Positions 18,119 through 35,351 of a DNA stretch of 64,000 nucleotides are shown here, one piece after another. Positions within the stretch are counted from its first letter, which is position 1. Each line of letters starts with the position of its first letter. The notes beneath the pieces are model-generated. The model ran no database searches and was not told the DNA's origin. It was given only the letters and a program-made list of their open reading frames with translations. Made by a program: the position numbers and the translations under genes. This stretch comes from an uncultured delta proteobacterium (GTDB lineage: Bacteria; Desulfobacterota; Desulfomonilia; UBA1062): NCBI GenBank assembly GCA_963798485.1, contig CAWCTR010000021.1, forward strand, positions 207,096 to 271,095, written 5' to 3'.

Positions 18119-18910
18119 TTAACACTTTTTGCTCTCGATGTCAGCATGCTTTGACTCTTCCCATATTTGATCCATCTCCTGTAGATTCATTTCTTCGAGA
18201 CTGATACCTCGACTCTTAGACTCCTTCTCGATTGTCTTAAAACGTTTTCTGAACTTGCGGTTGGTTCTCCGTAATGCGGCTTCCGGATCTACCCTGCACT
18301 TGCGGGCAAGGTTCACAACACTGAAGAGCAAATCGCCTATTTCATCTTCCATCGAGTCCGTATTCTTGGAATGAATGGCTTGGTCAAGCTCTTCAATTTC
18401 TTCCCGGATCTTCTCCATCACACCGAGGGCATCCTTCCAATCGAACCCCACCCGGGAAACAATGGACTGGATCTTGCGTGCTGCAAGGATAGAGGGCAGA
18501 GACTTGGGTATCCCGTCCAGGATGGATTCCCTGGCAATCTTGCCCTTCTCACTTTTTTTCAGTTTTTCCCAGTTGCGAATGACCTCTTTTGATGAATTCA
18601 GCGCTACATCGGCGAAAACATGGGGGTGCCTTGAGATCAGTTTATCAGCCAGGCCATTGATGACATCCCTTAGGCAGAACTCACCAAGGTCTCTGGCAAT
18701 AATACTATGAAAGATCACCTGCAGGAGGACATCTCCGAGTTCCTCTTGCATATGAACCTTGTCTTCATTGAGAATGGCATCGAAAAACTCATAGGACTCC
18801 TCAATAATGCACTGGGATATGCTCTTATGGTCCTGCTCTGCATCCCAAGGGCAACCGCCGGGCGCTCGCAACCTTTCAAATATCTGCACCAACCTATCAA
18901 ATTCTTCCAT
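18119..18910 (-). CDS. mazG: Nucleoside triphosphate pyrophosphohydrolase MazG
   Basis: GCPWDAEQ, EELGDVL, RHPHVF, EIGDLLF. Confidence 0.93.
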   Translation of the reverse strand: MEEFDRLVQIFERLRAPGGCPWDAEQDHKSISQCIIEESYEFFDAILNEDKVHMQEELGDVLLQVIFHSIIARDLGEFCLRDVINGLADKLISRHPHVFADVALNSSKEVIRNWEKLKKSEKGKIARESILDGIPKSLPSILAARKIQSIVSRVGFDWKDALGVMEKIREEIEELDQAIHSKNTDSMEDEIGDLLFSVVNLARKCRVDPEAALRRTNRKFRKRFKTIEKESKSRGISLEEMNLQEMDQIWEESKHADIESKKC

Positions 18911-19841: not shown

Positions 19842-21575
19842 CTACTCACCTTCCATATATCTCTCAATGATATTTACTCCTAGACCTGTGCGTGAGCTTA
19901 ATTTAATTTTAAATCTTTTATCAAAAAGAAATTTCTTTACCCTGTCTATTTCATCCTTCTTATAATTAAAAGAATCTTCATTTCTTACAGAAATATCCAC
20001 CCAGATAAATCCATCTGAATAACCAATATCATCTAGCCTTGCGGCTGTTTCTTCGTAATTTCTACCAACCCTACCCCATTCTTGAATTGTGTCGCAAAAT
20101 ATAAGTATAAAAGATAAGGGATCTTCCTTGAAAGTTAAGGATTCTAAAATTTTCTTATGGGAAAAAGCACTATCAGCCCTTCCAGAAAAATGCCCCCAGA
20201 TTCCTTCATCATGTAAAGCAATAGCCCTTGAAGCTTTTAGAAGGGCCTCCTTGTTCAATCCCTTGGGACGTTGTTTATCGAATAATTTTAATAACGATAA
20301 CGCACCTAAAAGACCATGATTTTTTTCATCGATGATTTTTTCATAAAAGAATAACAATGCAATTCTATCAATGGGGAGGTTATCAAATGTATCGCATAAT
20401 TCCTTTGTTTTAAACATGTAATCTTCTTTTACATAGCATTCATCAAGGTTTAATCTTGAAGGATTTTTATCAAGAAACAAGGTATTTTTAAAAAATGTAG
20501 CTATCCATTCATTATAGTTTTGAATATTATAATTATAATCATGATAGGTCGAAGCCAAAAGCCACATATTTTCTAGTGAATTACCAAACTTTTTCTGGAA
20601 AGAAGATATCGATTTATCAGTATATAATTTGTCTATTATGTAGCATCCTAAAAGAAATACATGAAGTTGATGCAAAAAATGATCCCTATATCTTGGATTG
20701 AGCAGTAGTACAGGTTCAAAATCTTTTTGAAATTCTGGATATTCTAAGCCGATTTTATTCCAAAGTTTTTTTATCAATTCTAATGCAATATCATAATCGT
20801 CTTCAATTCTGGTTCTATATTCAGCAGCCAATTGTTGTAAATTATCAGTGTATTCTAGATGTTGGATTTCAGCAATCCGATCTATAAGCGTTAAACTAAT
20901 ATTTCTTCCTTCGGTCCTGCCAACAATTTCTCTTCTTTTATATTCTGGTTCAGGATAGTAAATAAGATATTTATTTGTTTCTTCAATATGAAGATCTAAT
21001 TTTTCGAACAGCCTATGCTGTATATCTGGTATTAATTCCTTTGGAAGAGCCTTTTTATGTTCTTTGAGGTATTCTTGAAGTGGTAATATTACCTTGCTGA
21101 ACTCTTCAAAGGAAATATCAATGAGTGGAATTGACGATATGATTTCTTCTACGGTCTTTTCTCCAACCTTAAAAAGACCGACTTTATAAGATTGACACAA
21201 CTCTTTAAATCTATCGAATTCATTATCTTCACTTAAATAATCAGGATATGCCCAATACACTTTTGCTTTGGGAAAGTAGTATTGAAAGAATGTTGCTGAA
21301 GATGCATCATTAAGCTCAATACCTCCTTTCACCAATGTACGTGGTATATGCAAATGATAGAAGAAGTCATTACTTTTTATTGTACGGCTATTGATAACAT
21401 CAACTACTACTTCATTAATAGATTCACTTTTCTTTGTAACTCCCCTCTTTCTTGCGTATACAGGCACTCGTGCAGGAAGGAACTTATCTGAGTATACCTC
21501 TGTCTCATATCCCTCTTTTTTGAAGTAGGCGGACAACCAGTTTGTCATTTGTTTCACTGTATATGTGCTTTTCAT
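19842..21575 (-). CDS. HD-type metal-dependent phosphohydrolase with N-terminal domain of possible restriction-endonuclease-like fold
   Basis: YRDHFLHQ, LASTYHDY, NHGLLGA, ALHD, CDTIQEWGR; RBS GAGGA. Confidence 0.6.
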   Translation of the reverse strand: MKSTYTVKQMTNWLSAYFKKEGYETEVYSDKFLPARVPVYARKRGVTKKSESINEVVVDVINSRTIKSNDFFYHLHIPRTLVKGGIELNDASSATFFQYYFPKAKVYWAYPDYLSEDNEFDRFKELCQSYKVGLFKVGEKTVEEIISSIPLIDISFEEFSKVILPLQEYLKEHKKALPKELIPDIQHRLFEKLDLHIEETNKYLIYYPEPEYKRREIVGRTEGRNISLTLIDRIAEIQHLEYTDNLQQLAAEYRTRIEDDYDIALELIKKLWNKIGLEYPEFQKDFEPVLLLNPRYRDHFLHQLHVFLLGCYIIDKLYTDKSISSFQKKFGNSLENMWLLASTYHDYNYNIQNYNEWIATFFKNTLFLDKNPSRLNLDECYVKEDYMFKTKELCDTFDNLPIDRIALLFFYEKIIDEKNHGLLGALSLLKLFDKQRPKGLNKEALLKASRAIALHDEGIWGHFSGRADSAFSHKKILESLTFKEDPLSFILIFCDTIQEWGRVGRNYEETAARLDDIGYSDGFIWVDISVRNEDSFNYKKDEIDRVKKFLFDKRFKIKLSSRTGLGVNIIERYMEGE

Positions 21576-21585
21576 AAGATATTCC

Positions 21586-22079
21586 TCATCTATTTACCGT
21601 AAGCAACTTCTCAATTTCTTCATATCCCTTATCTATATTATTAACTATAATTGTTTTATCTTTGAGTTCTTTCTTAATAATCCCAAGTTCTGTCAGACCC
21701 ATTGTTCACGATATAAGATATTTTTCATAACTATCTTAAAGATTATTGGTATGTTTGATAATGCATAAGGCTTAATAACACCTTTTGGATCAGACAAATC
21801 AACTACCCCTCTAGAATACCAGGCCCATGCTCTCCTCAACCATAAGATAATATGTATAGAGGGTGGCAGAAGATAAATGATCTTGTCATACTGTTCAGGA
21901 TTTCTATCAAGGCCATGCACATCTTCAACCAATATAGCCTTTGAAGAAGACTGAGGAATGTCTTCATGGGCATAGTAGTCCATATCGATTTGTAAAACCT
22001 TTCCAGGGAGTTTATCAGCTATTTTTCCACGTAAAGTGCTTTTCCCTATGTTTCCAATACCAGTGATTAGAATTTTCAT
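21586..22079 (-). CDS. Small P-loop (nucleotide-kinase-like) protein with probable 1-nt frameshift near 21695
   Basis: Walker A GIGNIGKST. The track ORF stops at 21693, but a shifted frame continues TELGIIKKELKDKTIIVNNIDKGYEEIEKLLTVNR* to 21586, ending at the next gene's RBS. Confidence 0.6.
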
Positions 22080-22096
22080 GATACCACAATGTTTAG

Positions 22097-23212
22097 TTAT
22101 ACCCTTTCATATACTCTAAGCGTTTCCTCTAGATATCGATCATATCCATAGCCAATCTTGATGTTGCATCTTGATGGGCCACTCCATTTATCGATTAATT
22201 CGGTGATTTCCTTCTGTGTTATTTTCATATCATCAAGATCCACTCTTACAATCTGATTCTCTGGAATACCCTGTGTAAACTGCTCATATTCATTTACATC
22301 CAAAGTCAGGTCCGTGATTATCGTAAGGCCCGACCAGAGCGCTTCACACACGATGTTGGAAAAATCTTTGATAGGATTATCTCTTTCAAAATAAAGAAGG
22401 TAATCAATGTTTCCTAATAGAGCGGGCATATGGGCAGGATGAACAAAATTATTATGCTTATAATATCTTAAACCATTTCCCTCGACGAACTTGGCAAACT
22501 CAGAAAAACCACTTCCCTGTCCAACTATTTTCAATGCATGTCGATTTTTGATTTCCGAGAAGATCTCAATGATTTTGTCGAGACTTTTATATTTCCAATG
22601 GTAATTTATTTTGCCAATGTAGGCAAAAGCAGGCACCTCATGTACATTGATTGCTGGTTTAAAGAACTTTTCATCGGGGATATATCTTGGGAGTGTAACT
22701 ATATTTGAGTTGATAGCTTCAAAAATATTTCTGTTCTTGTCATCAGTAATAATTACTGCCGCATTTCGGATTACCTCCTTTAGGAGATTACTGAAAACAC
22801 CCTGCTTCAGAAATTTAACTATATCACTACCCCCGTGCCTCAATACATAGGGAAGACCGGTTATATTGGATAGCAGATAGCCGACAATACCATATGGTAT
22901 GAGGTAATTCGTATCTATTAAATCAATTTGGTTGTCGCAAATTATTTCCAGTGCCTTGTCCAAGAGTTTAGGCACGTAAAGAGCTGAGTAGGGAATGTGC
23001 CAGGGTGTATCTGGATCGATATAGTGAACTATCAGATTTGGAGGCAGTTCAGGGATTTGATCATTGATATAATATTCCTGTTCGACGCAATTTGCATTAG
23101 TGACTACATGAACCGTAGCACCTTTTTCAGCAAACCCCTTTGCCATCCAGAAAGTCTGGGCTGATATTCCTCCCTGAGTAGGCGGGAACTTGCTGATCAT
23201 ACATACGTTCAT
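22097..23212 (-). CDS. GT-B glycosyltransferase (GT4-like)
   Basis: CMISKFPPTQGGI, VHVVT, PYVLRHGGSD, YIGKI, NIVCEALWSG. Confidence 0.8.
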   Translation of the reverse strand: MNVCMISKFPPTQGGISAQTFWMAKGFAEKGATVHVVTNANCVEQEYYINDQIPELPPNLIVHYIDPDTPWHIPYSALYVPKLLDKALEIICDNQIDLIDTNYLIPYGIVGYLLSNITGLPYVLRHGGSDIVKFLKQGVFSNLLKEVIRNAAVIITDDKNRNIFEAINSNIVTLPRYIPDEKFFKPAINVHEVPAFAYIGKINYHWKYKSLDKIIEIFSEIKNRHALKIVGQGSGFSEFAKFVEGNGLRYYKHNNFVHPAHMPALLGNIDYLLYFERDNPIKDFSNIVCEALWSGLTIITDLTLDVNEYEQFTQGIPENQIVRVDLDDMKITQKEITELIDKWSGPSRCNIKIGYGYDRYLEETLRVYERV

Positions 23213-24941
23213 TTATTCGTCCTTTACAAAAATCGTCTATTGAAAAACCGGGTTCAAACCGACCCCTATTATGGACCATGAAATAATAAAAGAGATCAAA
23301 CATAAGGACATCCGTGGCACTTTTACAATATTTTGCAAAAGGATGTTTTTTAATGGAATCAGCAGGAATAAGGCTATCAATTATCTTCGTAACTTGAGGG
23401 CCAACATACCCCAAGGCAGCAGGCATACCATATTTCTTTCTGCTAATAATATCTTCAAGGTTATACTTCTTTAAGTATGATGATGCTGCGTCTTTGAATA
23501 TTCTTTTAGTTCTGTCTTTGTCAGGCACCTTGAACTCGATGGGCAGCGACAAAGCAAACTCTGCAATGTCGTCATAAAGATACGGAGGTCTCGTCTCAAA
23601 ACCAAAGGCGGCGCACGATCTGTCAACGCTCCACAGGTGGTAATTCGAAAGCCCGGTTCTCACCAGTGTGTCGAAAAGATTTTTTCTATATGCCCTCTCA
23701 TCTTCGGGTTGAGGGAAAAGGTCATGTACAATCTTTTGGACCTTTGAGCTCCCGGGAAGATGCGATGCCCTTTGTCGAATTCTGTCAGAAAAGCCGAGGG
23801 GATGTGTATACGGCCAATAATAACCCCCGAACAGCTCGTCTGCCCCTTCGCCGGTAAAGGCAACCTTATGGTGCTGGGAGATATATTTTGAAAGAATGTG
23901 AAAAGCCAATGCACCCTGAATATCAAAGACTCCACCTGACATGATATTCTCGTAGTGATATATAAAATCAGGCAGTTCATCGATGTAGCCCGAGGTATTG
24001 ACACAAATCTCGTTATGTTCAGAGCCAATTGCTGTCGATACTTTCCGCGCATAATCAAGATCAGGGGCATCCTCTGAGTCATAAAGGGTATATGTCTTTA
24101 CAGGCTTGTTGAGTATCTCGGTGGACAGAACAGCCATCATCGTTGAATCAAGACCGCCCGATAAATAGATAACCGTTTCATGATTTCCATGCTTGAGTAA
24201 TCGGGTAAAAGCATGGAACAAGGTTTCAGTAAGTTGATCAACAGATTCCTGATAATCCATATTGCCATTGCTTACATAATCTGAAGGTTGTGGTGCGTAA
24301 TATCTTCTAGATAAGATTTCATGCCCATCAAATTGTACGACGGTTCCCGGTGTGATCTGGCGGATGGATGAAAGCGGTGTGAGGTCCTCTGAAAAGACAT
24401 ACCCAAAGACTGTCAATTCCTCCAATGCATCTATATCGATCGCCGCAGGTACATCGGGGTGTTGCAGCAAGACTTTCATCTCTGAGCCGAAAATGAGCTT
24501 TTCCCCGGACCGGTGGTAATATAAGGGCTTAATGCCAAATCGATCCCGTGCAAGGAGGATCTTGTTTTTCTCCACGATGACAATCGCATACATACCCTTC
24601 AGGTGTTTTACAAAGTCAGGTCCATATTTTATGTATAGTGGTATAATAACTTCAGCGTCGGTGCCTGAGGTAAACTGAAATTCGTCTTGTAAGAGTTCTC
24701 TTTTAATCTCCCTATAGTTATAAATCTCTCCGTTGAACAGAAGGGCGATATTGTGTCTCCTGTCTATGAAAGGCAGCACGTCATCTTGAGTGCTGACAAT
24801 ATTCAAGCCGCATTCACCGAGAGAATGGTTTCCAAATAATGTTGTTATGAACGAGTCTGGCCCGCGATGGCGTATTGATGAAAGCATGGCGGATACCACC
24901 ACTTCGTTTCTCTCATTGAATATACCGCAGATGCCGCACAT
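23127..24941 (-). CDS. Asparagine synthetase B-like class II amidotransferase
   Basis: True start MCGICG at 24941 (TGATG overlap); HRGPD, FNGEIYN, ARDRFGIKPLYY, SGGLDS, TGEGADELFGGY. Confidence 0.9.
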   Translation of the reverse strand: MCGICGIFNERNEVVVSAMLSSIRHRGPDSFITTLFGNHSLGECGLNIVSTQDDVLPFIDRRHNIALLFNGEIYNYREIKRELLQDEFQFTSGTDAEVIIPLYIKYGPDFVKHLKGMYAIVIVEKNKILLARDRFGIKPLYYHRSGEKLIFGSEMKVLLQHPDVPAAIDIDALEELTVFGYVFSEDLTPLSSIRQITPGTVVQFDGHEILSRRYYAPQPSDYVSNGNMDYQESVDQLTETLFHAFTRLLKHGNHETVIYLSGGLDSTMMAVLSTEILNKPVKTYTLYDSEDAPDLDYARKVSTAIGSEHNEICVNTSGYIDELPDFIYHYENIMSGGVFDIQGALAFHILSKYISQHHKVAFTGEGADELFGGYYWPYTHPLGFSDRIRQRASHLPGSSKVQKIVHDLFPQPEDERAYRKNLFDTLVRTGLSNYHLWSVDRSCAAFGFETRPPYLYDDIAEFALSLPIEFKVPDKDRTKRIFKDAASSYLKKYNLEDIISRKKYGMPAALGYVGPQVTKIIDSLIPADSIKKHPFAKYCKSATDVLMFDLFYYFMVHNRGRFEPGFSIDDFCKGRINERMYDQQVPAYSGRNISPDFLDGKGVC

Positions 24942-25780
24942 CAGCCTGTCTCTCTCGATAAATATTTCAAAGCCTCGACCAAACCCCAATAGGCATAGGC
25001 AGATCCCTCTTCAATGTAATGATAAGGCCAGAATCCGTTGGGAAGCTGTGTGTCTACCAGCCAGTTAACCGCTTTTTCTATTACCTTTCTTTTCACTAGT
25101 TCTGGATAAGAAAGAAGCCCCAGCAACACAATCCCTGTTGACCACGGGTCACTTCCGATAGGATGGTCTTTCCAGGGGCCAAAGCCACCATCTTCATTCT
25201 GTTCCTCAGCAAGGAATAAATAAGTATCTTTTATTGATGGACAATCTTCAACGGAAACATTTGATGCTGCCAGTCCCAGTAAAAAGAAACCACCCTTATA
25301 CGTGAGTTTCGTAGCACCCTTAAAATCTTTTGCCCATTCCCTTTGCAACCAGTTTACAGCCCTTGGGTCGGAAAGTGATGGAAAAAGATTCAAAAGAAGT
25401 CCTGTTATGGGGATACGGGATATATCACGATTAGTACGCCCCCACCCACCATCTGGATTGCGTTGGGATAAAATCCATTTATTTCCTTTTTCTACCAAAG
25501 AGCTATAAACATTGCCAATTAATGAGAGGATCTTAACAGAAAGTAAAGACTCTTCCACATCTGACCAGCCACCATCAATGTGTTGATGGTCAGCAGTATA
25601 TTGAGCTACCTGTTTGTACAAGATGCTCTTAGAATTAGCCCCTGCACTAATAAGTGATAGGGCACAGATATTTATTCTTCTGACTTCTATCTGATTTTTT
25701 AGAGCTGACCTTATAAAGTCAGTAAGCTGAATGGAAGCTACAATGACACATTGAGTATTATTTTTTTGATTCTTATTCAT
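24941..25780 (-). CDS. Prenyltransferase/squalene-cyclase (QW) repeat protein
   Basis: Four QW-type repeats: QHIDGGW, QRNPDGGWG, QNEDGGFG, QLPNGFW. Confidence 0.8.
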   Translation of the reverse strand: MNKNQKNNTQCVIVASIQLTDFIRSALKNQIEVRRINICALSLISAGANSKSILYKQVAQYTADHQHIDGGWSDVEESLLSVKILSLIGNVYSSLVEKGNKWILSQRNPDGGWGRTNRDISRIPITGLLLNLFPSLSDPRAVNWLQREWAKDFKGATKLTYKGGFFLLGLAASNVSVEDCPSIKDTYLFLAEEQNEDGGFGPWKDHPIGSDPWSTGIVLLGLLSYPELVKRKVIEKAVNWLVDTQLPNGFWPYHYIEEGSAYAYWGLVEALKYLSRETG

Positions 25781-28700
25781 GAGCTTTTTGGAGTGGCAGA
25801 CCTACTTCACAGATCATACGCATTTCTTCTTGAATGATGTTTTCAGGTTTAGATTTTAAACAGACGTCGCAGAAATAGAAGAGGGCTTCATCCATTCCAT
25901 ATCCAAAGTGCCTATATTGTATATTTAAAGCATCAACAAAACGCTTGCAACCGTAGCACCAGACTTTATAGTGCCTTTCTTTGCAATCCGGCTTTATCCA
26001 TTCAAGTTCTTTTTCAGGTAGTTTTTCCTGTCTTGCCAGAATAACATTCAACCCGATATCTACGGGGAGACATACCCGTTTACACGTTTCATTTTCGAAT
26101 ATCCGGTTAAGGCGTTTTATAAGATCGATTCGAATGCCCCCTTTCAGCTCCTCACCAAATTCTGATATTAATATAAGCTTGTTCTTATTGCCCTCGTTTT
26201 TATTGCCCTTGTTTTCTTTGATCGATTTAATGAATCGCAATAAACCAAAGAGATATGGATGCTTTGCTTTCTCGATAAGTTTCTCGCACTGCGGACCTCT
26301 ATAATATGAAAACTTCTTCTTCTCTTCATTCACACTTTCACTTTCTATTAAAGCGCCTAGATGGATACAGACAGCATCGCATTTTTCATATTGTTCCGGT
26401 ATTTTTTCTTCCCATTTTGTATCTCCTGTGTATCCAAATGAATATACAGGATCTCCTCCTTCCTTACCATTTTTATGATCAATAAAGTCAATGACATAAC
26501 CAAAGGAATCTGACCTTTCAGAGTAGTCGTTGTGATAAGCTATAGTTGGTGTTATTTTTAACTCTCCCTCTTCATTTTCTTTATCTCTTATGATCGATTC
26601 GAATACATCTTTACTCCCATTTTTTGATGAACGCTTAAATTCAAATGACGGAGGTTTCTTTTTATTATCAGGAGGATAGATTTCCTTATCTATATCCACT
26701 ATATACGTGTCAGCCAAGAATTCCCGTAAAGTAGTATTATTTATAATATGTTCTAATTTACGATAGACTCCCAATGACATGATAGCATGTATTTTCTTTT
26801 CAGAGCCCTTTACTCTCTTCGTAAGATCGAGCAATGATGACACGATCGGCTCGAAATCCCGTATATGATCGGAATGGGCGTGCGATATCAGGATGAAGTC
26901 TATGTCATTGAGCGTAAAACCCATATGAAACAGATTCTTGACAAAATCAAAACCCGGATCAATGGCGATTCCAAGCGTCACAGATCCTTTTTCATCCTGT
27001 TTATAGAGGAGGTAGCCTCCGCCCAGTGATAAGGTAAGCGTGGGTGTCTGGGAATTCCATCTTTGAAGGCCTACAAAGTGATATGACTTTTGTGTTGAAT
27101 CGGAATATAAATGATGACTGCTACGATATTGCAAGCGAGCGAGAAAATGCTCGTTTTCCTGCTTCATGATCCCTTCATATATATTTGCCTCTAGTGTTCT
27201 TATATCCGCATGCGGAGATTGAGACAAAGAATGATTCCTCACTGGATTTCTAATCGTTCCGAATAAACAACAGGAGGATAGTATGTTCTGCTGCTTTATA
27301 GGACAGTTACCTAGAAGGCCATCAAAGGCTTTACGATCTTCCGGTTCAGAAAAACAACTAACACATTTCCTCTCATCCAAATGATTCTTCAATCTATTAA
27401 TTCTCTGATGCCTTTCAAGCTCTTTAAATCGATAAAGTAGAAACTTTTCACGTTCATAATCGTTCAGTGCCCCTAAGAAATATTTTTCGTCTTCAATGTA
27501 ATCTTTAGAGTCTAAATTTCTATAAAACTTTTCTAAAGAGTCTGCATACCGGTCGTAATCATATTTGTCGAAGTCTTTAAGTTTAACTCCATTCTCTTTT
27601 TTTTCAGGTAGAATATATTCTTTAATCTTCTCATAGAGATTTTTTATTATTGTATCCTGATAATATTTATCCTCAGGCTTAGAATTCTTATGAAATTCCG
27701 AAAGCAATTTCAGAAACCTTGCGATTTGTTGATAATAACGTGTCCTTTCATTTTTGATTTGAAGAACTGCGCCTTTATTGTTTGGATCTATATAGTTCGG
27801 GAATTTATTACTAAGAGATTCTAAGTCTTTTTTAAATATATCATAATTAACTTCTTTATCTTCTATTTGTTTAAGCCGTTGAAGTTTATCCCAACTAATT
27901 TCGAATTTTAAAAGAAAGTATTCAAATAAAAGCCCACGAGTCTTACTAATGCTATTTTTTCTAATATTATTTTTTCTGGTTCCCCAAGTATCAAATGCTT
28001 TAAAAAAAGATTCAATGTTATCCATATTGGTTTTAAGCTCTTGGGATGCCAGAAGTTCTATAATTTTTTCTTTTGCCATCTCCATTCTTCCAATATCTCT
28101 GTAAGCAAGAGCCACCTTTATGAGTCTGTTTTCTTTTTTCCTGTCATTAAGCTTTTGTAAGGTCACTATTGTATGATATGAAAATTGCAGAGCTTCTTGG
28201 AGCTCGGCCCTAAAAAGAACAGCCTGGTCATAGAGAAGACTTCTCCACAGCACCTTTTCATCTTTAGCTTGCAGGCATTGTGCAGCATTATCATAATCAA
28301 ATCCTCTGATTACTTCACTAAAGGCGAGGGCTGCTTGCATCTTTTGGTTTGAATGCCAATATCCGATACCTTCATTCAATCGCGCCCAGAGCTTATACAG
28401 CTCAAACCTATAATGGGATGCGCTTCCGTTCTCCGTTTTACCTTTGATGGCCTCCTCACGGGCTCGAATTGCAAATCCAAGAGATTCGAGACCTGGTTTT
28501 CCACAGGCAGAAAGTTCCTGAAAATAAAGATGTTGAAGAATTATTTCGTGATTTGTTTGTGGATATGGATACGGGAGCTTACGTTGCAGATATACGATAA
28601 GTTCGTCTAGATGCTTCATGTAGCTGTCTGTGCCTTGTTGCATGATTTTTGCACGGAGGTACTTGGCAAAGAATAAGCGCCTCCATTTAATATTTGTTGT

Positions 28701-28943
28701 TTCTATTTTGCAGGAACCGATATCTTGAATGGATTGTTCAGGATATTCTTCTTTATTATCGTCATTAATATTAATAAAAATTGATTGGAAATCTTGCTCG
28801 CCGCAGAAAACCTTATTTATTTTTTCCTTTAATGTTTTCTCAATTGCAATACAGTCATATAACTTTTCATACTCCTCTTCATCAATCCAGACATCAACTT
28901 TTACATTTAGCAGCTCAAGTTCTTGGAAATCTTCATTGGTCAC
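25773..28943 (-). CDS. Large protein: helical/TPR-like N-terminus, metallo-beta-lactamase-fold domain, C-terminal Zn ribbon
   Basis: LQRWNSQTP..GGGY..IDPG, ISHAHSDH, AYHND, GYTGDT, HLG; CYGC...CDVC. Probable GTG start at 28943 (the track starts it at 28976). Confidence 0.72.
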   Translation of the reverse strand: MTNEDFQELELLNVKVDVWIDEEEYEKLYDCIAIEKTLKEKINKVFCGEQDFQSIFININDDNKEEYPEQSIQDIGSCKIETTNIKWRRLFFAKYLRAKIMQQGTDSYMKHLDELIVYLQRKLPYPYPQTNHEIILQHLYFQELSACGKPGLESLGFAIRAREEAIKGKTENGSASHYRFELYKLWARLNEGIGYWHSNQKMQAALAFSEVIRGFDYDNAAQCLQAKDEKVLWRSLLYDQAVLFRAELQEALQFSYHTIVTLQKLNDRKKENRLIKVALAYRDIGRMEMAKEKIIELLASQELKTNMDNIESFFKAFDTWGTRKNNIRKNSISKTRGLLFEYFLLKFEISWDKLQRLKQIEDKEVNYDIFKKDLESLSNKFPNYIDPNNKGAVLQIKNERTRYYQQIARFLKLLSEFHKNSKPEDKYYQDTIIKNLYEKIKEYILPEKKENGVKLKDFDKYDYDRYADSLEKFYRNLDSKDYIEDEKYFLGALNDYEREKFLLYRFKELERHQRINRLKNHLDERKCVSCFSEPEDRKAFDGLLGNCPIKQQNILSSCCLFGTIRNPVRNHSLSQSPHADIRTLEANIYEGIMKQENEHFLARLQYRSSHHLYSDSTQKSYHFVGLQRWNSQTPTLTLSLGGGYLLYKQDEKGSVTLGIAIDPGFDFVKNLFHMGFTLNDIDFILISHAHSDHIRDFEPIVSSLLDLTKRVKGSEKKIHAIMSLGVYRKLEHIINNTTLREFLADTYIVDIDKEIYPPDNKKKPPSFEFKRSSKNGSKDVFESIIRDKENEEGELKITPTIAYHNDYSERSDSFGYVIDFIDHKNGKEGGDPVYSFGYTGDTKWEEKIPEQYEKCDAVCIHLGALIESESVNEEKKKFSYYRGPQCEKLIEKAKHPYLFGLLRFIKSIKENKGNKNEGNKNKLILISEFGEELKGGIRIDLIKRLNRIFENETCKRVCLPVDIGLNVILARQEKLPEKELEWIKPDCKERHYKVWCYGCKRFVDALNIQYRHFGYGMDEALFYFCDVCLKSKPENIIQEEMRMICEVGLPLQKAHE

Positions 28944-29044
28944 ATAATCACCCCGTCCCCCCAAACAGTTAGGCAATAAATTAAATCTTGGTTAACTCTT
29001 ATACTAACCTTGAGTCCAGACTGTAGATAATTAAAATTTGGAAA

Positions 29045-29185
29045 TTAACGGCAACCATGGCATCCGGAGCACTGACGGCAGACGATCCGTTTGTCGGATG
29101 CATTGATAATTTCAACGGGGAAATTCATAGTCTTTTCTTTTCTCAACAGAGGTTTTTCGTACTTTTTTAATTTATCCTTTTTCAT
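29045..29185 (-). CDS. Putative RiPP precursor peptide, 46 aa: MKKDKLKKYEKPLLRKEKTMNFPVEIINASDKRIVCRQCSGCHGCR
   Basis: Manual translation; RBS AAGGAG; ATGA overlap with the PqqD stop; YxxPxL leader motif; C-terminal CxxCxxCxxC. Confidence 0.85.
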   Translation of the reverse strand: MKKDKLKKYEKPLLRKEKTMNFPVEIINASDKRIVCRQCSGCHGCR

Positions 29186-29475
29186 CTTTCTCTCCTTTTA
29201 AGAATACCTTCGTTAATATAATTTGTGATGATTTCATTAAAATCACTTTTCCCCTCTGCTTCATTGACGTTAAAACTGCTCAGAAAACCTTTTAAAATGC
29301 TCTGAAGGGGTATGTTCTCCGCAATCTGCTCGAGGATCCAATAGGAGGTTTCATTCAGAGTATAATGTTCCCCTGTGTCAATATTGAAGACCCAGTATTT
29401 CCCGAGCTCCCCAATTTTTTGAAGAAAAATATTGTCCTGCAATACAAACGAATCGATCTCTTTTATTTCCAGCAT
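29182..29475 (-). CDS. PqqD-family RiPP recognition element (RRE)
   Basis: VFNIDTGEHYTLNETSYWILEQI...FNVNEAEGKSDFNEIITNYINEGIL pattern; 97 aa. Confidence 0.88.
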   Translation of the reverse strand: MLEIKEIDSFVLQDNIFLQKIGELGKYWVFNIDTGEHYTLNETSYWILEQIAENIPLQSILKGFLSSFNVNEAEGKSDFNEIITNYINEGILKRRER

Positions 29476-30488
29476 TGAGTGTCCTCTGCAAGGTAATCAC
29501 CGGTTGCAGTGAAAGCTGAGGCCCTGCATCCCCGGCAAGCAGCTAAAAATTCACATCCGGAGCATTTACCTTTAATGTTCTTGGGATTTCTTATGTCCCA
29601 TAGAACTTTGGACGTATACCACACCTTATAAAAGCTATCATTAAGGGCGTTCCCTATGGGGATCGGTAATCGCCGGCATGGGAGAATTGTGCCATCATGC
29701 ATAATGGTTAATGCGTTCGTGCCTGCAGAACACATGGCGCCTACAGTGGGATCATGTCCGTTAAGAAGACTAAAGAGGGGGCGGTATAATAAGATACGCG
29801 GTTTTTTCTGTTTCAATGCCCGGGTATAAATCTTGGTGAATATCTGTTTCAGCTGAACCGATGAAAGAAATTGATCCTCCAGACCAGCCCCTTTCCCCTC
29901 AGGGATAAATCGCTCGGCTGCAAATGTATCGACCCCTTCTTTTTCTAACAGATCAATCACGGGATCAAACTCATCTTTATTGAAATTGCTGATCGTCATC
30001 ATGACAGCTATTTGAAAATCATTTTTCTTTAGCAATCGAATGGCATCAAGCGCCTTTTGAAAACTGCCGGAGCCCCTGATCTGATCATTAATATGGGGCG
30101 ACGATCCTTCGAGAGAGAGCTGTATCCGCCTCAGTTTTTTCAGACTCTTCAAGTCGCCAAGAATATCTTCATGAATAAAGCACCCATTGGTCAGGATATC
30201 GAAATGATGCACAGATTGAAGTGTATCAATATGATTCAGAAGGGAAAACATTTTGTCTTGAACAACAAATGGCTCACCGCCGGTGATGGATAATGTCCCC
30301 TTCTTGTTCCATTTTCTTAATGTGTCATCTATTTCATCTGCCACAATAATGAGTTTATCCAGGCTCAGCTCGTTATCTGATGAATACTTGTCATGATAGC
30401 AGTGTTTGCATCTAAGGTTGCACCTTTCAGTGATGTGCCACTGAAAATAGAATTCTTCATCTATGTTTAATTCATCAAACTGATTCAT
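29463..30488 (-). CDS. Radical SAM enzyme with SPASM domain
   Basis: CNLRCKHC, TGGEP, LTNG; seven-Cys SPASM pattern Cx12Gx4C...Cx2Cx5Cx2Cx17C. Confidence 0.92.
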   Translation of the reverse strand: MNQFDELNIDEEFYFQWHITERCNLRCKHCYHDKYSSDNELSLDKLIIVADEIDDTLRKWNKKGTLSITGGEPFVVQDKMFSLLNHIDTLQSVHHFDILTNGCFIHEDILGDLKSLKKLRRIQLSLEGSSPHINDQIRGSGSFQKALDAIRLLKKNDFQIAVMMTISNFNKDEFDPVIDLLEKEGVDTFAAERFIPEGKGAGLEDQFLSSVQLKQIFTKIYTRALKQKKPRILLYRPLFSLLNGHDPTVGAMCSAGTNALTIMHDGTILPCRRLPIPIGNALNDSFYKVWYTSKVLWDIRNPKNIKGKCSGCEFLAACRGCRASAFTATGDYLAEDTQCWK

Positions 30489-30684: not shown

Positions 30685-32130
30685 TCATGGTTCGAACTTT
30701 GGATCAGGGCATTCAGGGTATGTCGGAGGAAGAGGCCTGCATGCCGGCAGCTCCTCGATAACTCGCATGGACTTCCACTTCCCCTGAAGGAAACGTCCAA
30801 AGAAGGCAAATCCCAGAATAGTCACATAGGCAGTGGCACTATACCAAGCCGCCATTAACCCAAACCCGAGAACCGTGATGGCTATATAGGTTGGAATGAC
30901 GAGAATGAAGGCAGAGACCAGAACGTTCATGTACATGACGAAGCGTGTGTCCCCTGCTCCCTTTATGGCATATGCAAAGATAACATTCATGGTATCAAAG
31001 ACAGAGTAAAATGCCACAAACCTGAGCAGCATTATACTGAGGCGTTCAATCTCGGTATATGCCCCTGCATGAGCATGCGCAGCAAAGGGTGCTACAAGAA
31101 CACCAGGCACCACCACGAAAAGGATCGCGATGGTACTCATATAGATAAACGTCATACCGAATCCCGAATATACGCTTCTGGCGGCAATGGCAGGCCGGTT
31201 TTTGCCAAGATACTGCCCCACGAGAACAGATACCGCAATGCCGACCCCAATCATGGGCATGAAGGCAAGCGTGTTGATGTTGAATGCTATGTTTGTTGCA
31301 GCAAGGCTTACTGTGCCAAGACGCCCAAGGATCAGTACAAATACTGTGAACCCTACCATATCGAGGAAGAACTGCACCCCTGACGGAACTCCGAATTTAA
31401 GCAGTCGCACGAACAGCTCCCTCTCTGGTTTCCAACCTGAGATAGTATGATAGACTGCATCGTAGGAAGGATGAGCAATAAGTGCCACATAGGCCAAGAA
31501 GGAAAAGCTCCCAGAGATAACCGCAGCAATGGCTGCACCTTTCATCCCCATCTCAGCGAACCCCCACTTTCCGAAGATGAGCATGTAACCCAGAACGAGA
31601 TTGACAGCGGTGGCGAGCACATTTACCCACATGACAGGCCAGGGCTTCCCCCTGCCAGAGAAGAATCCGGCCAAGGCGGAGGCGGCTATCACCGGGAAGC
31701 CGCCAAGGCAGAGGTACTGGAAATAAACCACTTCATTTTTCTGCACTGCAGGGTCATGACCTACAAAGGCAAAAAAAGGCCCGGCAAACGGGATCAGGCA
31801 TAAGATAATCAGACCCCCGATAAGTGACAAGTAGATGCCCTGCCACAGGGCCGGGCCGATCCTGTCATATCTTCGGGCGCCATAGTATTGTGCCACAAAG
31901 GTGTTCACATAACTCGCAGTCCCGATGAAAAAGCTCATGACTGCGAAGTTCACCATACTTGAGGGCATGGCTGCGGCTATGGTCTCAGGTGAATACCAGG
32001 AAAGAAACATCCGGTCCACGAAGTGCTGGATAGACCAAGAGCCGGTGCTGAGCACCAGCGGGAAGGCGAGCACGAGCACTTCCCGGACTCCACCTTGGCC
32101 TGACCATCTTTCTTTTAAGTAATTATTCAT
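30685..32130 (-). CDS. MATE-family efflux transporter
   Basis: FVDRMFL, VAQYYGA, GAAIA, VLVGQYLG, KGAGDT; likely start MNNYLKE at 32130. Confidence 0.9.
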   Translation of the reverse strand: MNNYLKERWSGQGGVREVLVLAFPLVLSTGSWSIQHFVDRMFLSWYSPETIAAAMPSSMVNFAVMSFFIGTASYVNTFVAQYYGARRYDRIGPALWQGIYLSLIGGLIILCLIPFAGPFFAFVGHDPAVQKNEVVYFQYLCLGGFPVIAASALAGFFSGRGKPWPVMWVNVLATAVNLVLGYMLIFGKWGFAEMGMKGAAIAAVISGSFSFLAYVALIAHPSYDAVYHTISGWKPERELFVRLLKFGVPSGVQFFLDMVGFTVFVLILGRLGTVSLAATNIAFNINTLAFMPMIGVGIAVSVLVGQYLGKNRPAIAARSVYSGFGMTFIYMSTIAILFVVVPGVLVAPFAAHAHAGAYTEIERLSIMLLRFVAFYSVFDTMNVIFAYAIKGAGDTRFVMYMNVLVSAFILVIPTYIAITVLGFGLMAAWYSATAYVTILGFAFFGRFLQGKWKSMRVIEELPACRPLPPTYPECPDPKFEP

Positions 32131-32322
32131 GTGAATACCATGTCCGGGATATGTAAGCTCATCGGTGATGAATTCATAGCACGACCGAAATACTTTGGAA
32201 ATTGCCAGGACATGATTCGGACTTGATTCATTCCCTATCATCAATTAAGAATGAACCTCACAAGCTTGTTTCTCCATCAAAAGTGCATCCATGTGAATAG
32301 GGCTATACAAAGGAGTATGATA

Positions 32323-32556
32323 ATGGCTGTGAGTTTTGATCAAGTTGAAAAGGCACTCGAAAAGACCCGCACCGTACTCAAGAGTGACGGCGGAAATGTT
32401 GAACTCGTAGATGTCTCACCAGATGGAATTGTACAGGTTCGGCTTAAGGGTGCATGTAACGGATGTCCTATGGCCACCATGACACTCAAGTCTCTCATCG
32501 AAAGGGTAATCAAGAAAGAGGTGCCTGAGGTCAAGGAAGTGAAGGCTGTGGCTTAG
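32323..32556 (+). CDS. NifU/NfuA C-terminal domain protein
   Basis: DGGNVELV, GACNGCP; AGGAG RBS. Confidence 0.88.
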   Translation: MAVSFDQVEKALEKTRTVLKSDGGNVELVDVSPDGIVQVRLKGACNGCPMATMTLKSLIERVIKKEVPEVKEVKAVA

Positions 32557-33572
32557 TGACCATTAAACCCTTCCCCCGTATTGGATCCATCCACTCGCTG
32601 ACGGTTCCCCTACCCGGATTCCCTGCCCTCATCTGCTCCAATATGTTTGTTCTGGGGGATGGCCCCATAACACTCATCGACTGTGCCCCCAAGTTCCCGG
32701 GCTCATTGCTTACTCTGGAGAGGCAACTCCATGAAATCGGCTTTGGTTGGAATGACGTCGAGCGCATCATCATCACCCATGGCCATATCGACCACTTCGG
32801 CCTGGTGGGCCGGATCCGCAACGCCTCCGGACATGCGATCCCCTGCTATATCCACCATGACGATCTGTGGAAACTATCCGGTGATTATCTTAAGAGCGGT
32901 ATGTGGGACGAGGATGCCGACGTCTTCTATGCAAAGATAGGTATGCCTGAACAAACAGTGGAACGGATGAAGCGCCGGTCGCACTTCTTTAAAAATCTCT
33001 GCGATCCGGTAGATGATGCAATCCCTATGAAGGGGGGCGATATCTTCCAGGGTAGCGGGTTCGATCTTCAAGTCATCCACACCCCCGGTCACTCGATAGG
33101 ATGCTGCTGCCTGTATGAGCGGAATCACAAAATCCTTTTCAGCGGCGACCATCTCCTCAAGCACATCACACCCAACCCTTTCCATGAGGTGAACCGTTCC
33201 CGCCTGAGAGACCCTTCATATAAGAGCCTTAAGGCATATATGGAATCTCTTGTGAAACTTGAACATCTCAAAGTAAGCTTCATCTTCCCAGCACATGGAG
33301 AATATATTATCGACCTGGAATCCCTTATAGCAGGCTACCGGAAGCATCATGAGAAACGTACCGAGGAAATATGGCAGACCCTGAAAAATGGGGTGTGTTC
33401 TATCTACGGGCTTATGACAGATGTTTTCCCCGGCATCGAAGAATCCGAGGCCTTCCTTGCTGTCTCTGAGATCCTTGTCCACCTGGAACTCCTGATTGAG
33501 GCAGGCAAGGCCGAACTTGTAGGGGAAGGGCCGCCTGCACTCTTTCACGCAAGCTTAGTCAACACAAATTAG
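32556..33572 (+). CDS. MBL-fold hydrolase with C-terminal winged helix
   Basis: THGHIDH, TPGHS, SGDH, PAHG. Confidence 0.85.
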   Translation: MTIKPFPRIGSIHSLTVPLPGFPALICSNMFVLGDGPITLIDCAPKFPGSLLTLERQLHEIGFGWNDVERIIITHGHIDHFGLVGRIRNASGHAIPCYIHHDDLWKLSGDYLKSGMWDEDADVFYAKIGMPEQTVERMKRRSHFFKNLCDPVDDAIPMKGGDIFQGSGFDLQVIHTPGHSIGCCCLYERNHKILFSGDHLLKHITPNPFHEVNRSRLRDPSYKSLKAYMESLVKLEHLKVSFIFPAHGEYIIDLESLIAGYRKHHEKRTEEIWQTLKNGVCSIYGLMTDVFPGIEESEAFLAVSEILVHLELLIEAGKAELVGEGPPALFHASLVNTN

Positions 33573-33591
33573 TGATCCCAGGGTTGAGGTT

Positions 33592-34200
33592 ATGCCTACT
33601 ATACGAGAAAAAACTCAACACATCATCGAGGACTGGATTGCGCCGCAGAGCCGGGTGCTTGACTTGGGCTGCGGTGACGGCACGCTTTTGAGCCGCCTTA
33701 CGGAAAGGAAGCAGGTTGACGGCATCGGTGTCGAGATTTCCCGGGATATGATCGTGAAGTGTCTGGGCAAGGGCATCAGTGTCTATCAGGCGGACATCGA
33801 CCACGGCCTGTCTCAATGGGACGAGCTCAGCTTCGATTACGTTATTCTCACCGCCACCCTGCAGGTGATCCACAGACCCTATAATGTTATCAATGAGATG
33901 CTCCGGGTGGGGAGATGCGCTGTCATTTCAGTGTCCAACTTTGGTTATGCGGCGAACAGATTGGGTATCATGTTGAAAGGCCGCATGACGGATGATATGA
34001 GGCTCATCGGGGACTGGCACGACACCCCGGTGATTCGATTCGTCTGCCTTAAAGAGTTCATCAGGTCGCTTACGGGAATGGGTATTGATATTCTGGATGC
34101 AAGGTTTTTTCTCCCCTTTGACCTAACAGTGAGAACCAAGATGCCCCTTGATAACCTGATTGTGAAAGAAGCCATCTTTATGCTGGGGCACAATAGATGA
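33592..34200 (+). CDS. metW: Methionine biosynthesis protein MetW
   Basis: VLDLGCGDG, FDYVIL, SNFGY; adjacent to metX. Confidence 0.85.
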   Translation: MPTIREKTQHIIEDWIAPQSRVLDLGCGDGTLLSRLTERKQVDGIGVEISRDMIVKCLGKGISVYQADIDHGLSQWDELSFDYVILTATLQVIHRPYNVINEMLRVGRCAVISVSNFGYAANRLGIMLKGRMTDDMRLIGDWHDTPVIRFVCLKEFIRSLTGMGIDILDARFFLPFDLTVRTKMPLDNLIVKEAIFMLGHNR

Positions 34201-35351
34201 GCACAAGCCCCATTGTTGAGACCAGCATCCTCTCTATCGAGAGGCCTTTCAGGCTGGAATCCGGTGAAATACTCTCAGAGATGAACATTGCCTATGAGAC
34301 CTACGGGGAGCTCAACAAGTCGAAAGACAATGCCATTCTCATTGAACACGCACTTTCAGGCAGCGCCCATGCCGCATTCTGCCATAAGGGCGATACAAAG
34401 CCGGGTTGGTGGGATGTCATGATCGGACCGGGCAAGGCCTTTGACACGGATAAACACTTTATTATCTGTGCAAACGTCATCAGCGGTTGTAATGGAACAA
34501 CCGGGCCATCTTCCGTCAATCCGGCCACGGGCGAGCCCTATGCCCTTACCTTCCCGCCGGTGACCATCCGCGACATGGTGGAGGTACAAAGGCTCCTGCT
34601 CAGCCACCTCGGTATCGAACGTCTTAAAAGCGTTGTGGGAGGTTCCATGGGAGGTATGCAGGCCTTGCAGATCTTCTGTGACTACCCATCGCTGTTTGCT
34701 TCATTCATCTGTATCGCATCCACCATGCGGCACTCGGCCCAGCAGATTGCCTTTAACGAGGTAGGCAGGCGGGCCATCATGGCAGACCCGAGATGGAACG
34801 GTGGCAATTATTACGGGGAAATACCCCCGGAGGGCGGGCTGTCGGTTGCACGGATGATCGGCCATATCACCTATATCTCGGAAAAAATGATGCAAGAAAA
34901 ATTCGGCCGGATTCGCAAGGGCAAAGACTCCAAGGCCGTATTCAGACCATCCTTCGAGGTAGAACACTACCTGGACTACCAAGGCATAGCCTTTGTCCGC
35001 CGGTTCGACGCCAACAGCTATCTTTATATCACAACAGCCATTGATAACTTCGATCTGGTCTCCTCCATCAGCGGCTCTACACGATTACGGGGCGAAAACC
35101 GGGCCAGGGGTAGAGGCTTTGACACATTAAAAAAGAAAAAAGGCCTCGTCATCTCCTTCACCTCAGACTGGCTCTACCCCTCTCAACAATCCCACGACAT
35201 TGTCCGGTTCTTTTCGGGGTTGAATGTACGTGTCTCGTATGCAGAGATCGCGACTGACCACGGCCATGATGCCTTTCTTACGGATTATGGGCAACTCTGT
35301 CTGATAGTGAGCAGCTTTCTAGACTCGCCCAATGAATTAAGCAGATTATAA
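34197..35351 (+). CDS. metX: Homoserine O-acetyltransferase
   Basis: HALSG, GWWD, GGSMGGM, RFDANSY, HGHDAFL. Confidence 0.92.
   Translation: MSTSPIVETSILSIERPFRLESGEILSEMNIAYETYGELNKSKDNAILIEHALSGSAHAAFCHKGDTKPGWWDVMIGPGKAFDTDKHFIICANVISGCNGTTGPSSVNPATGEPYALTFPPVTIRDMVEVQRLLLSHLGIERLKSVVGGSMGGMQALQIFCDYPSLFASFICIASTMRHSAQQIAFNEVGRRAIMADPRWNGGNYYGEIPPEGGLSVARMIGHITYISEKMMQEKFGRIRKGKDSKAVFRPSFEVEHYLDYQGIAFVRRFDANSYLYITTAIDNFDLVSSISGSTRLRGENRARGRGFDTLKKKKGLVISFTSDWLYPSQQSHDIVRFFSGLNVRVSYAEIATDHGHDAFLTDYGQLCLIVSSFLDSPNELSRL

Follow-up and report, generated by a model that had tools for sequence, protein, structure and literature searches.

A putative precursor peptide with a CxxCxxCxxC core, encoded beside a PqqD-type recognition protein and a radical SAM enzyme in an uncultured delta proteobacterium, and its copies in phage DNA

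Precursors of lasso peptides carry the leader motif YxxPxL, through which they are recognised by the PqqD-type B1 protein. A gene arrangement that recalls this system was found in a stretch of 64,000 nucleotides from an uncultured delta proteobacterium (assembly GCA_963798485.1, contig CAWCTR010000021.1, positions 207,096 to 271,095 of the forward strand), the whole of which is called the window below. Here the gene of a 46-aa peptide with a Y-x-x-P plus hydrophobic residue leader adjoins that of a separate PqqD-fold recognition element (RRE) of the type known from peptides synthesised on the ribosome and modified post-translationally (RiPPs). Unlike lasso systems, the set of genes around the peptide, referred to as the cassette, lacks a B2 peptidase, a lasso cyclase and an Asp/Glu acceptor in the peptide, its modifying enzyme is a radical S-adenosylmethionine (SAM) enzyme with a SPASM domain, and the leader has an additional element, M-x-F.

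The maturases of sacti- and ranthipeptides (SkfB, 5wgg, PapB) share with the cassette the CX3CX2C motif, the seven-Cys SPASM domain and a Cys-rich C-terminal core, whereas the RRE of the cassette is a separate protein and not an N-terminal fusion. From these systems, as well as from the ACGX system of model TIGR04340, whose peptide presumably carries ACGX repeats, to judge from the model name only, the cassette differs in its 11-residue core with a Cys at every third residue and invariant Q, S and H, and in partner genes that differ from all of theirs. The pyrroloquinoline quinone (PQQ) and mycofactocin pathways likewise combine a short near-invariant peptide, a PqqD-like chaperone, a SPASM radical SAM enzyme, a metallo-beta-lactamase (MBL)-fold protein and a glycosyltransferase. 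In contrast to them, the cassette is rare and patchily distributed, its radical SAM enzyme is not an equivalog of PqqE or MftC, and it has nuclease-type partners and phage-borne copies of the peptide. Tests of membership were negative for lasso peptides, sacti- and ranthipeptides, the ACGX system, PqqE/MftC, c-type cytochromes and every system of PADLOC. By its sequence, the cassette resembles an RRE-dependent SPASM radical SAM RiPP system with a lasso-type leader motif, and the features of this class found in it are the synteny of the precursor and the CX3CX2C and SPASM cysteines. It is best read as a member of an undescribed family of RRE-dependent radical SAM RiPPs. The peptide gene and its two immediate partners are located in the window as follows:

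29045..29185, minus strand: gene of the 46-aa precursor-type peptide (coding 29185 to 29048, stop codon 29047-29045)
29185-29081, minus strand: leader, approximately residues 1-35, part of the peptide gene
29080-29048, minus strand: core, residues 36-46, C-R-Q-C-S-G-C-H-G-C-R, part of the peptide gene
29192..29197, minus strand: AAGGAG ribosome-binding site, by direct reading, inside the 3' end of the PqqD gene
29182..29475, minus strand: 97-aa PqqD-type RRE (Pfam PqqD 26.1 bits, cut-off 23.4)
29463..30488, minus strand: 341-aa radical SAM/SPASM enzyme (Radical_SAM 76.3 bits, SPASM 32.5 bits)

The initial annotation had proposed a 46-aa open reading frame (ORF) without stating its strand; the translation proved exact and the strand is minus. 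The AAGGAG that it reported is present at 29197-29192, 6 nt ahead of the ATG, and the claimed translational coupling to the RRE is seen as an ATGA overlap at 29185-29182, where the peptide ATG (29185-29183) and the TGA of the PqqD gene (29184-29182) meet. The end of the radical SAM gene in turn overlaps the start of the RRE gene by 13 nt, and a scan for promoters and terminators around the peptide gene gave nothing above shuffles. The four cysteines do lie within the last 11 residues at strict i,i+3 spacing (residues 36, 39, 42 and 45, with R46 as the last residue), and the predicted lack of a signal peptide agrees with direct reading, by which the N-terminus is Lys-rich and has no hydrophobic signal stretch. 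The source genome contains one copy of the peptide (genome search), and no Pfam or NCBIfam model matches it. Pairwise comparison of 10 core codons in 17 genes gave 671 synonymous against 143 non-synonymous differences, the amino-acid changes being limited to two variable positions in the per-position codon table; both Cys, both Gln, both His, five Ser and all four Gly codons are used. This predominance of synonymous differences indicates selection acting on the protein level, and there is hardly any doubt that the ORF is a real gene.

Searches with the radical SAM enzyme yielded 19 loci in species-representative genomes at 46-74% identity (a further, 20th-type fragment aligned over 28 residues only), belonging to Desulfobacterales, Thermodesulfovibrionia, KSB1, Bacteroidales, Firmicutes, Actinobacteria and one Thermoplasmatota archaeon. 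All named genome records with this enzyme are metagenome-assembled genomes. Three of the 19 loci end at the radical SAM gene and are uninformative for the peptide; in all 16 with downstream DNA the peptide lies directly behind the radical SAM/RRE pair (tblastn). A lack of conservation beside homologous radical SAM genes had been named at the outset as an observation that would speak against the ORF. It was not observed: in all 16 genome loci a precursor-type peptide is coupled to genes for a SPASM radical SAM enzyme and an RRE of the PqqD type. The RRE was found by tblastn in 15 of these 16 peptide-bearing loci, and the sixteenth (L025) has an assembly gap there. When metagenome loci are included, the radical SAM enzyme or the RRE is present in 43 of 59 peptide loci with at least 1.6 kb of upstream DNA. 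The peptide is very probably the substrate of this RRE and radical SAM enzyme.

The peptide family is large. Thirty homologues with 61-85% identity were found in a set of 5.8 billion proteins, a profile of 32 sequences detects 266 clusters (50% identity) at E<=1e-3 and 140 at E<=1e-10, and a scan of metagenomes with this profile gave at least 423 stretches, from which 80 loci were kept; the family is represented in bacteria and archaea. Among the best 150 profile clusters, CxxCxxCxxC followed by 0-3 residues terminates 148 and Y-x-x-P is contained in 148; of the 146 that carry both motifs, 139 have Y and the first Cys 25-29 residues apart, most often 27. No longer or fused forms of the peptide were found, which is weak evidence by the rating of the search tool.

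Residues Y9, P12, M20, C36, Q38, C39, S40, C42, H43 and C45 are invariant in 32 of 32 diverse members, and K11, K16, F22 and G44 are conserved in at least 90%. The YxxPxL motif proposed for the leader thus stands in its Y and P, invariant in 32 of 32, and fails in its L, as that position is merely hydrophobic (L, I, M, C, F or V). The profile also shows the conserved YxKP and C-terminal Cys motif that had been expected, with K11 at 90% or more, and the anticipated variable middle corresponds roughly to residues 28-35, the most variable stretch in the 32 sequences. Two features had been overlooked: a second leader element, M20-x-F22, next to Y9-x-x-P12, and a near-invariance that spans the whole core, including Q38, S40 and H43. 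The core consensus is C-x-Q-C-S-x-C-H-x-C-[R/K], and there is no curated model for a family with a CxxCxxCxxC core and invariant Q, S and H. No Asp or Glu is invariant anywhere in the peptide (32 sequences), and the core contains neither.

In 48 homologues of the radical SAM enzyme, the CX3CX2C cysteines (C23, C27 and C30) and seven SPASM cysteines (C253, C271, C309, C312, C318, C321 and C339) are conserved in at least 95%. By sequence, its nearest solved structures are SkfB (E 5.8e-14) and 5wgg (E 8.2e-10). The best NCBIfam match is the ACGX-system model TIGR04340 (190.6 bits, cut-off 400); among peptide-modifying enzymes, SbtM (160.2 bits, cut-off 350), PapB (71.2 bits, cut-off 340), StsB (66.1 bits, cut-off 625) and AlbA (64.6 bits, cut-off 850) also score below their cut-offs. 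Membership in the sacti- and ranthipeptide families was rejected on the PapB, StsB and AlbA cut-offs and on the lack of any match of the peptide to an NCBIfam peptide model, and membership in the ACGX system was rejected on the TIGR04340 score and on a core that has no ACG unit. No TIGR04340 members were found in 401 genomes of the phylum at E<=1e-60, a threshold at which the window's own enzyme is also too weak. One SPASM Cys motif of the enzyme (residues 308-322, C-S-G-C...C-R-G-C-R) resembles the peptide core C-S-G-C-H-G-C-R, possibly by coincidence.

Prediction of the complex of the RRE with the peptide gave an ipSAE of 0.46, against 0.00 for the best of 3 controls, which is a weak result; at least 59% of contacts are common to the runs, and the partner has a predicted local distance difference test score (pLDDT) of at least 51. 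The mark used for such predictions is reached by 58 of 80 solved complexes and by 2 of 110 mismatched pairs; at values of 0.60 or lower, only 7 of those 80 solved complexes and both mismatched pairs reach it.

Downstream of the peptide, the cassette continues on the same strand with the following genes, to which a transporter gene upstream of the radical SAM gene may be added:

25773..28976, minus strand: 1067-aa protein with a TPR-like region, an RNase Z/ELAC-type MBL domain and a C-terminal four-Cys ribbon (Lactamase_B_2 47.5 bits)
24941..25780, minus strand: 279-aa alpha/alpha-toroid protein of the squalene-cyclase/prenyltransferase repeat type (SQHop_cyclase_C 46.9 bits, Prenyltrans 28.5 bits)
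23127..24941, minus strand: glutamine-hydrolysing Asn-synthetase-type enzyme (TIGR01536 323.1 bits, cut-off 267.1)
22097..23212, minus strand: 371-aa GT4-type glycosyltransferase (Glyco_trans_4_2 34.7 bits), conserved in the cassette
21693..22079, minus strand: 128-aa small P-loop protein (GIGNIGKST), sub-threshold matches to AAA_14 and NTPase_1 only
19842..21575, minus strand: 577-aa protein with an HD-like central domain, no Pfam or NCBIfam match
30685..32244, minus strand: MATE efflux transporter (TIGR00797 222 bits), upstream of the radical SAM gene, cassette membership uncertain

The N-terminal region of the 1067-aa protein is all-helical and TPR-like, TPR proteins matching it at about 1e-3 in a fold search. 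In 26 sequences, HxHxDH (699-704), H815, D852, H906 and C1007/C1010/C1036 are invariant and C1039 is conserved in at least 90%. Its AlphaFold2 model has a pLDDT of 77.3 and gave 46 fold matches at E<=1e-3, the best being arylsulfatase, YhfI, tRNase Z/ELAC, ZipD and Apyc1, with PNGM-1 also among them; a sequence search of the PDB found nothing significant. The 577-aa protein has 261 homologues, none of them named, and H299, H302, H345, D346, H420, H455 and D495 are invariant, an HD-like set of His and Asp residues. Its AlphaFold2 model (pLDDT 88.5) had no PDB fold match at E<=1e-3, showing local likeness to MspJI, PaqCI, PPX and PDE2A, and the PDB sequence search gave nothing significant. A protein atlas placed it in its own unnamed clusters only, plus a 0.78 lead to HD proteins, and from the models an N-terminal restriction-endonuclease-like domain might be proposed as a lead only. 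Homology between the 577-aa and MBL proteins was rejected (hhalign probability 0.27%).

The toroid protein is a constituent of the cassette across loci and has only squalene-cyclase/prenyltransferase labels in the protein atlas. Residues D69, R118, D119, Y161, K162, D197 and H206 are invariant in it, and H254 is found in 13 of 14 sequences. Its assignment as a class II terpene cyclase was not adopted, the DxDD motif being absent, nor was a LanC- or farnesyltransferase-like Zn site with Cys, as there is no conserved Cys. The Asn synthetase likely starts at the Met before CGICG at 24941, while the ORF call begins at a TTG at 24989; some loci carry only its PP-loop half. The 128-aa P-loop protein occupies the same position in three other loci (L052, L068, L072). 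The MATE gene is upstream in four loci (the window, L017, L048 and L057) and absent from most, its GC content of 0.517 (31-32 kb) resembles that of the flanks and differs from that of the low-GC island, and it scores 83.2 bits against the tryglysin-associated WgkD model (cut-off 510, sub-threshold).

The usual gene order is radical SAM enzyme, RRE, peptide, MBL protein, toroid protein, Asn synthetase and GT4 enzyme, sometimes followed by the P-loop and 577-aa proteins. A second architecture is without the MBL protein and has a gene for a PP-loop-only Asn-synthase-like enzyme and the 577-aa protein. Where cassette loci have at least 1.5 kb of downstream DNA (48 loci), the first gene behind the peptide is most often that of the MBL protein (27 loci); next come those of a DNA methylase and of the toroid protein with 7 loci each, of the 577-aa protein with 5 and of a 252-aa protein with 2. 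The last of these, without Pfam match, lies between the peptide and MBL genes at L038:1169-1924 and also in L043 and L056, in the slot that holds a DNA methylase in other loci. A 607-aa protein, also without Pfam match, was seen between the toroid and Asn synthetase genes at L040:6793-8613.

In the window, GC content is 0.31-0.44 across approximately 19-31 kb, against 0.45-0.53 in the flanks. An orthologue is absent from 40 relatives, where the best match is 34% identical, and strong peptide matches occur in only 3 of 401 genomes of the phylum, with 2 further marginal ones. Low GC content, absence in relatives and rarity in the phylum together point to horizontal acquisition, and the cassette is, judging by these sequence features, a horizontally acquired island spread over many phyla. 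The two marginal matches (G241:C3:4540172-4540252 and G184:C59:22616-22654, L036 and L037) have E of about 6.5e-4 and partial model coverage, and are probably unrelated Cys-rich stretches.

Copies of the peptide gene were also found outside the cassette. Both the radical SAM enzyme and the RRE are absent in 16 of the 59 genome and metagenome loci mentioned above, and several of these loci lie among phage genes by PHROG families: terminase large subunit (L069, L096, L062), portal (L069), portal/head-tail adaptor (L096), head maturation protease (L069), major head protein (L066) and amidase/endolysin (L114). IMG/VR contributed 60 further peptide loci, 46 of them with at least 2 kb upstream. Homologues of the radical SAM enzyme, RRE, MBL protein, toroid protein, glycosyltransferase and 577-aa protein were found in none of the 60 in the DNA covered (tblastn with all family members), terminase or portal family members occur in 39 of the 60, and the nearest terminase or portal gene is within 500 bp in 20 of the 43 loci having one. 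Five whole viral records (60-316 kb), three with direct terminal repeats and two rated 100% complete, gave no match to the radical SAM enzyme or to the RRE profile.

The phage peptides (56 unique) retain Y, P and the core in 100%, F in 98% and M in 89%, and fall into the same lineage-specific leader classes as the host peptides. Leader identity to a cassette-linked peptide is at least 80% in 9 of 67 phage or orphan leaders; in one case (L141), the phage peptide equals the Bacteroidales cassette peptide of L027 from the Y onward. The sole cassette family also found near phage copies is the PP-loop Asn-synthase-like enzyme, whose gene is directly upstream of the peptide in three phage or orphan loci (L131, L112, L164) and gives a tblastn match about 0.6 kb upstream in L147. 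Retention of the leader makes sense only if host machinery recognises the phage copies, and it favours models in which extra peptide helps the phage, as a mimic, as a decoy or by supplying an inhibitor of a hydrolase.

Phage mimics of small host components are known from phage copies of the ToxI antitoxin and from T4 Dmd. As with these, the phages carry only the small component, with its motifs intact and some copies near-identical to those of hosts; unlike them, what is carried here is a peptide with a leader, whose maturation presumably depends on enzymes of the host. The likeness comes from the genes alone, not from toxin-antitoxin behaviour. A leader-bearing precursor carried alone by complete phage genomes would be a rare case of a virus-supplied substrate for a peptide-modifying enzyme of the host.

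Some phage-borne and orphan loci have features of their own. In a 316-kb IMG/VR record (L164:9754-10117), two tandem peptide genes lie behind the PP-loop Asn-synthase-like gene, and the first of them has an extra Cys-rich insertion ahead of the usual core. Upstream of the orphan peptide of L112 (646-3083) are the genes of an 81-aa protein of unknown kind and of a PP-loop Asn-synthase-like enzyme; downstream is a B12-binding radical SAM enzyme, of another class than the SPASM enzyme of the cassette. A family of small proteins (approximately 80-136 aa) with a conserved His-rich stretch and no Pfam or PHROG match adjoins phage-borne peptide genes (L131:1475-1819, L136:9588-9995, L147:3520-3804, L112:646-888).

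Genes of restriction-modification type occur in and around several cassettes. An N6_N4 DNA methylase is encoded between the peptide and MBL genes in L015, L017, L018 and L023 and, by family clustering, in L040 and L072, and the L026 cassette contains a 960-aa HD/dGTPase-like protein. The flanks include Eco57I/PglX-like and Eco57I/TaqI_C enzymes, HsdS, a PLD+SNF2 protein, and an N6_N4 methylase with an Eco29kI endonuclease. Of 32 cassette loci with a length of 8 kb or more, 14 contain one or more families of restriction-modification or defence type, which is a raw count made without background loci. Every well-covered cassette has a nuclease/phosphodiesterase-type protein, either the MBL protein, the 577-aa HD-like protein or the HD/dGTPase-like protein. 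The cassette is similar to known anti-phage systems (PADLOC-DB 2.0) in its restriction-modification-rich neighbourhood in many loci and in a hydrolase slot filled interchangeably by these three kinds of protein, and differs from them in that no cassette protein matches a system-specific model; the radical SAM enzyme matches only the pVip models (74 bits), as is to be expected of any generic radical SAM core.

A possible course of events may be outlined as follows. The RRE would bind the Y-x-x-P / M-x-F leader and present the core to the radical SAM enzyme, which might then act on the cysteines of the core, introducing thioether-type cross-links or making some other change centred on Cys. By analogy with enzymes of the SkfB and CteB types, thioether-type links could serve as the default guess, although nothing found here discriminates between the possibilities, and any specific core chemistry that might be named is unlikely to be the right one. 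The Asn-synthetase/PP-loop enzyme may activate the C-terminal carboxylate of the peptide for amidation or amide ligation; the C-terminus is proposed as its target because it is the only invariant carboxylate and the enzyme is the tightest genomic partner. The toroid protein and the GT4 enzyme might tailor the peptide further, and the mature peptide would work inside the cell with the nuclease/phosphodiesterase-type protein, for example by gating the hydrolase.

The nuclease-type partners, the restriction-modification neighbours and the phage copies that stand alone make an intracellular role in conflict the most likely one, to which we would give somewhat less than an even prospect, and a classic secreted bacteriocin is less likely. 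The combined reading, in which the peptide serves as precursor in a RiPP-type cassette that is undescribed and horizontally mobile, and acts after maturation in the conflict between phage and host, appears to us about evenly balanced between right and wrong. It might be narrowed to a new anti-phage or abortive-infection system in which the peptide, matured by the radical SAM enzyme and activated at its C-terminus, gates an interchangeable nuclease or phosphodiesterase effector and the phage-borne, leader-bearing copies are mimics or decoys; phages would then sometimes add the PP-loop enzyme, and the host RRE and radical SAM enzyme would mature the phage copy. In this specific form the proposal is doubtful. 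If it holds, it would link RiPP biosynthesis with phage defence or counter-defence.

Several observations weigh against a role in phage-host conflict or against the assignment as a whole. The radical SAM enzyme lies below the cut-off of every curated NCBIfam family, so that its chemistry is not readable from homology, and complex predictions that pass as weakly as that of the RRE and the peptide are more often wrong than right unless the guess is already likely. No peptidase family was detected in the cassette by Pfam and NCBIfam scans, which leaves the removal of the leader unexplained, and the MATE exporter upstream in four loci would fit an exported product. As to defence, 18 of the 32 cassette loci of at least 8 kb show none of the annotated restriction-modification or defence families, the association as a whole consists of raw counts without a control set, the window's own flanks contain housekeeping-type genes, the restriction-endonuclease-like domain of the 577-aa protein is based on fold matches of E 0.06 or worse, and PADLOC-DB 2.0 has no family for the RRE, MBL, toroid, Asn synthetase, glycosyltransferase, P-loop or 577-aa proteins. 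As to phages, the peptide had no match in isolate phages (INPHARED) or plasmids (PLSDB), and, as an alternative, the phage copies might be auxiliary genes by which more of a useful product is made available.

The best-surviving alternative, improbable in our view, is that the cassette makes a RiPP natural product, for instance an antibiotic or a peptide that binds metal, which the MATE transporter exports, the hydrolases, toroid protein, Asn synthetase and glycosyltransferase all serving in its biosynthesis or maturation; the restriction-modification neighbours would then reflect the mobile island only and the phage copies would be accessory. The logic of RRE, radical SAM/SPASM enzyme and precursor is that of such a product, four Cys and a His are suited to metal binding, a patchy horizontal distribution is typical of specialised metabolites, and the MATE gene with its sub-threshold WgkD likeness is in place in the loci listed. 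Its absence from most loci and its flank-like GC content, however, fit poorly with a dedicated exporter, and neither a peptidase nor a dedicated immunity gene was detected. Antibiotics under diversifying pressure do not usually have a core that is near-invariant over 266 clusters and many phyla. In addition, the partners resemble RNase Z or HD proteins, and complete phage genomes carry the peptide alone.

A smaller chance belongs to a peptide-derived cofactor of the PQQ or mycofactocin kind, with one peptide consumed per molecule and the phages carrying an auxiliary metabolic gene. PqqB and MftF act in the PQQ and mycofactocin pathways, respectively, and here a PqqB-like MBL enzyme and the glycosyltransferase would tailor the product. 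Such a role could account for a core near-invariant across bacteria and archaea, for PqqD-like and PqqE-like proteins beside a Lactamase_B_2 protein and a glycosyltransferase, and for phage copies that retain leader and core, as a substrate would need. The radical SAM enzyme, however, scores far under the cut-offs of PqqE (74.8 bits, cut-off 381.35) and MftC (106.9 bits, cut-off 265), and the fold search likens the MBL domain to phosphodiesterases of the tRNase Z type. For a cofactor, three strong matches in 401 genomes of the phylum and absence from 40 relatives would be a rare distribution, and no dependent oxidoreductase family recurs in the flanks.

Less probable still is an un-crosslinked, microperoxidase-like CxxCH peptide that binds a metal, an Fe-S cluster or heme, in which case an AhbD/NirJ-like radical SAM enzyme would handle a tetrapyrrole or cluster. 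The CxxCH unit (C39-x-x-C42-H43) is invariant in 32 of 32 members, and weak cytochrome c matches were obtained for 9 of the 32 (best E 0.0067), but these lie below the threshold and are due to nothing more than the five-residue motif. After the ACGX model, the next-best matches of the radical SAM enzyme include AhbD (162.2 bits, cut-off 500), NirJ2 (142.9 bits), NirJ and AhbC, all far below the 500-650-bit cut-offs of the tetrapyrrole enzymes. The dedicated RRE argues for modification of the peptide, the invariant Q38 and S40 are not explained by heme attachment, the peptide has no signal sequence on direct reading, and the cassette contains no Ccm or Ccs genes.

A lasso peptide precursor with a PqqD-type B1 protein and an Asn-synthetase-like cyclase, to which the Y-x-x-P and hydrophobic residue of the leader, the lasso PqqD models as best NCBIfam matches of the RRE and the Asn-synthetase homologue might point, is refuted by the lack of an Asp or Glu acceptor in CRQCSGCHGCR and by the cyclase score (the enzyme passes TIGR01536 and fails the lasso cyclase model NF033535 with 127.5 bits against 525), the lasso PqqD models also failing (22.2 bits against 80 and 19.5 against 70) and no transglutaminase-type B2 peptidase being present in the cassette. 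A chance ORF, which its length of only 46 aa and the absence of a matching family model might suggest, is likewise already refuted by the conserved synteny, hundreds of homologues and the synonymous codon pattern.

Literature searches on the peptide, its core motif and the cassette, which did not extend to supplementary files, found no paper; the matching passages of PMC12710340 and PMC10352776 contain no mention of the peptide or cassette. Supplements of genome-mining studies, such as RRE-Finder or radical SAM network atlases, could already list the family. That all named genome records are metagenome-assembled would explain why it has been overlooked so far.

Beyond the island, two regions of the window contain further ORFs, for which the translations were read by eye. 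Just outside it, a 263-aa ORF at 18119-18910 on the minus strand is presumably a MazG-type nucleoside triphosphate pyrophosphohydrolase. On the other side, beyond the MATE gene, the plus strand at 32251-35351 holds ORFs of 101, 338 and 202 aa, which we take to be NifU-like, MBL-fold and methyltransferase-like proteins, respectively, as well as an ORF of 384 aa, and the GC content of this region is of the flank type.

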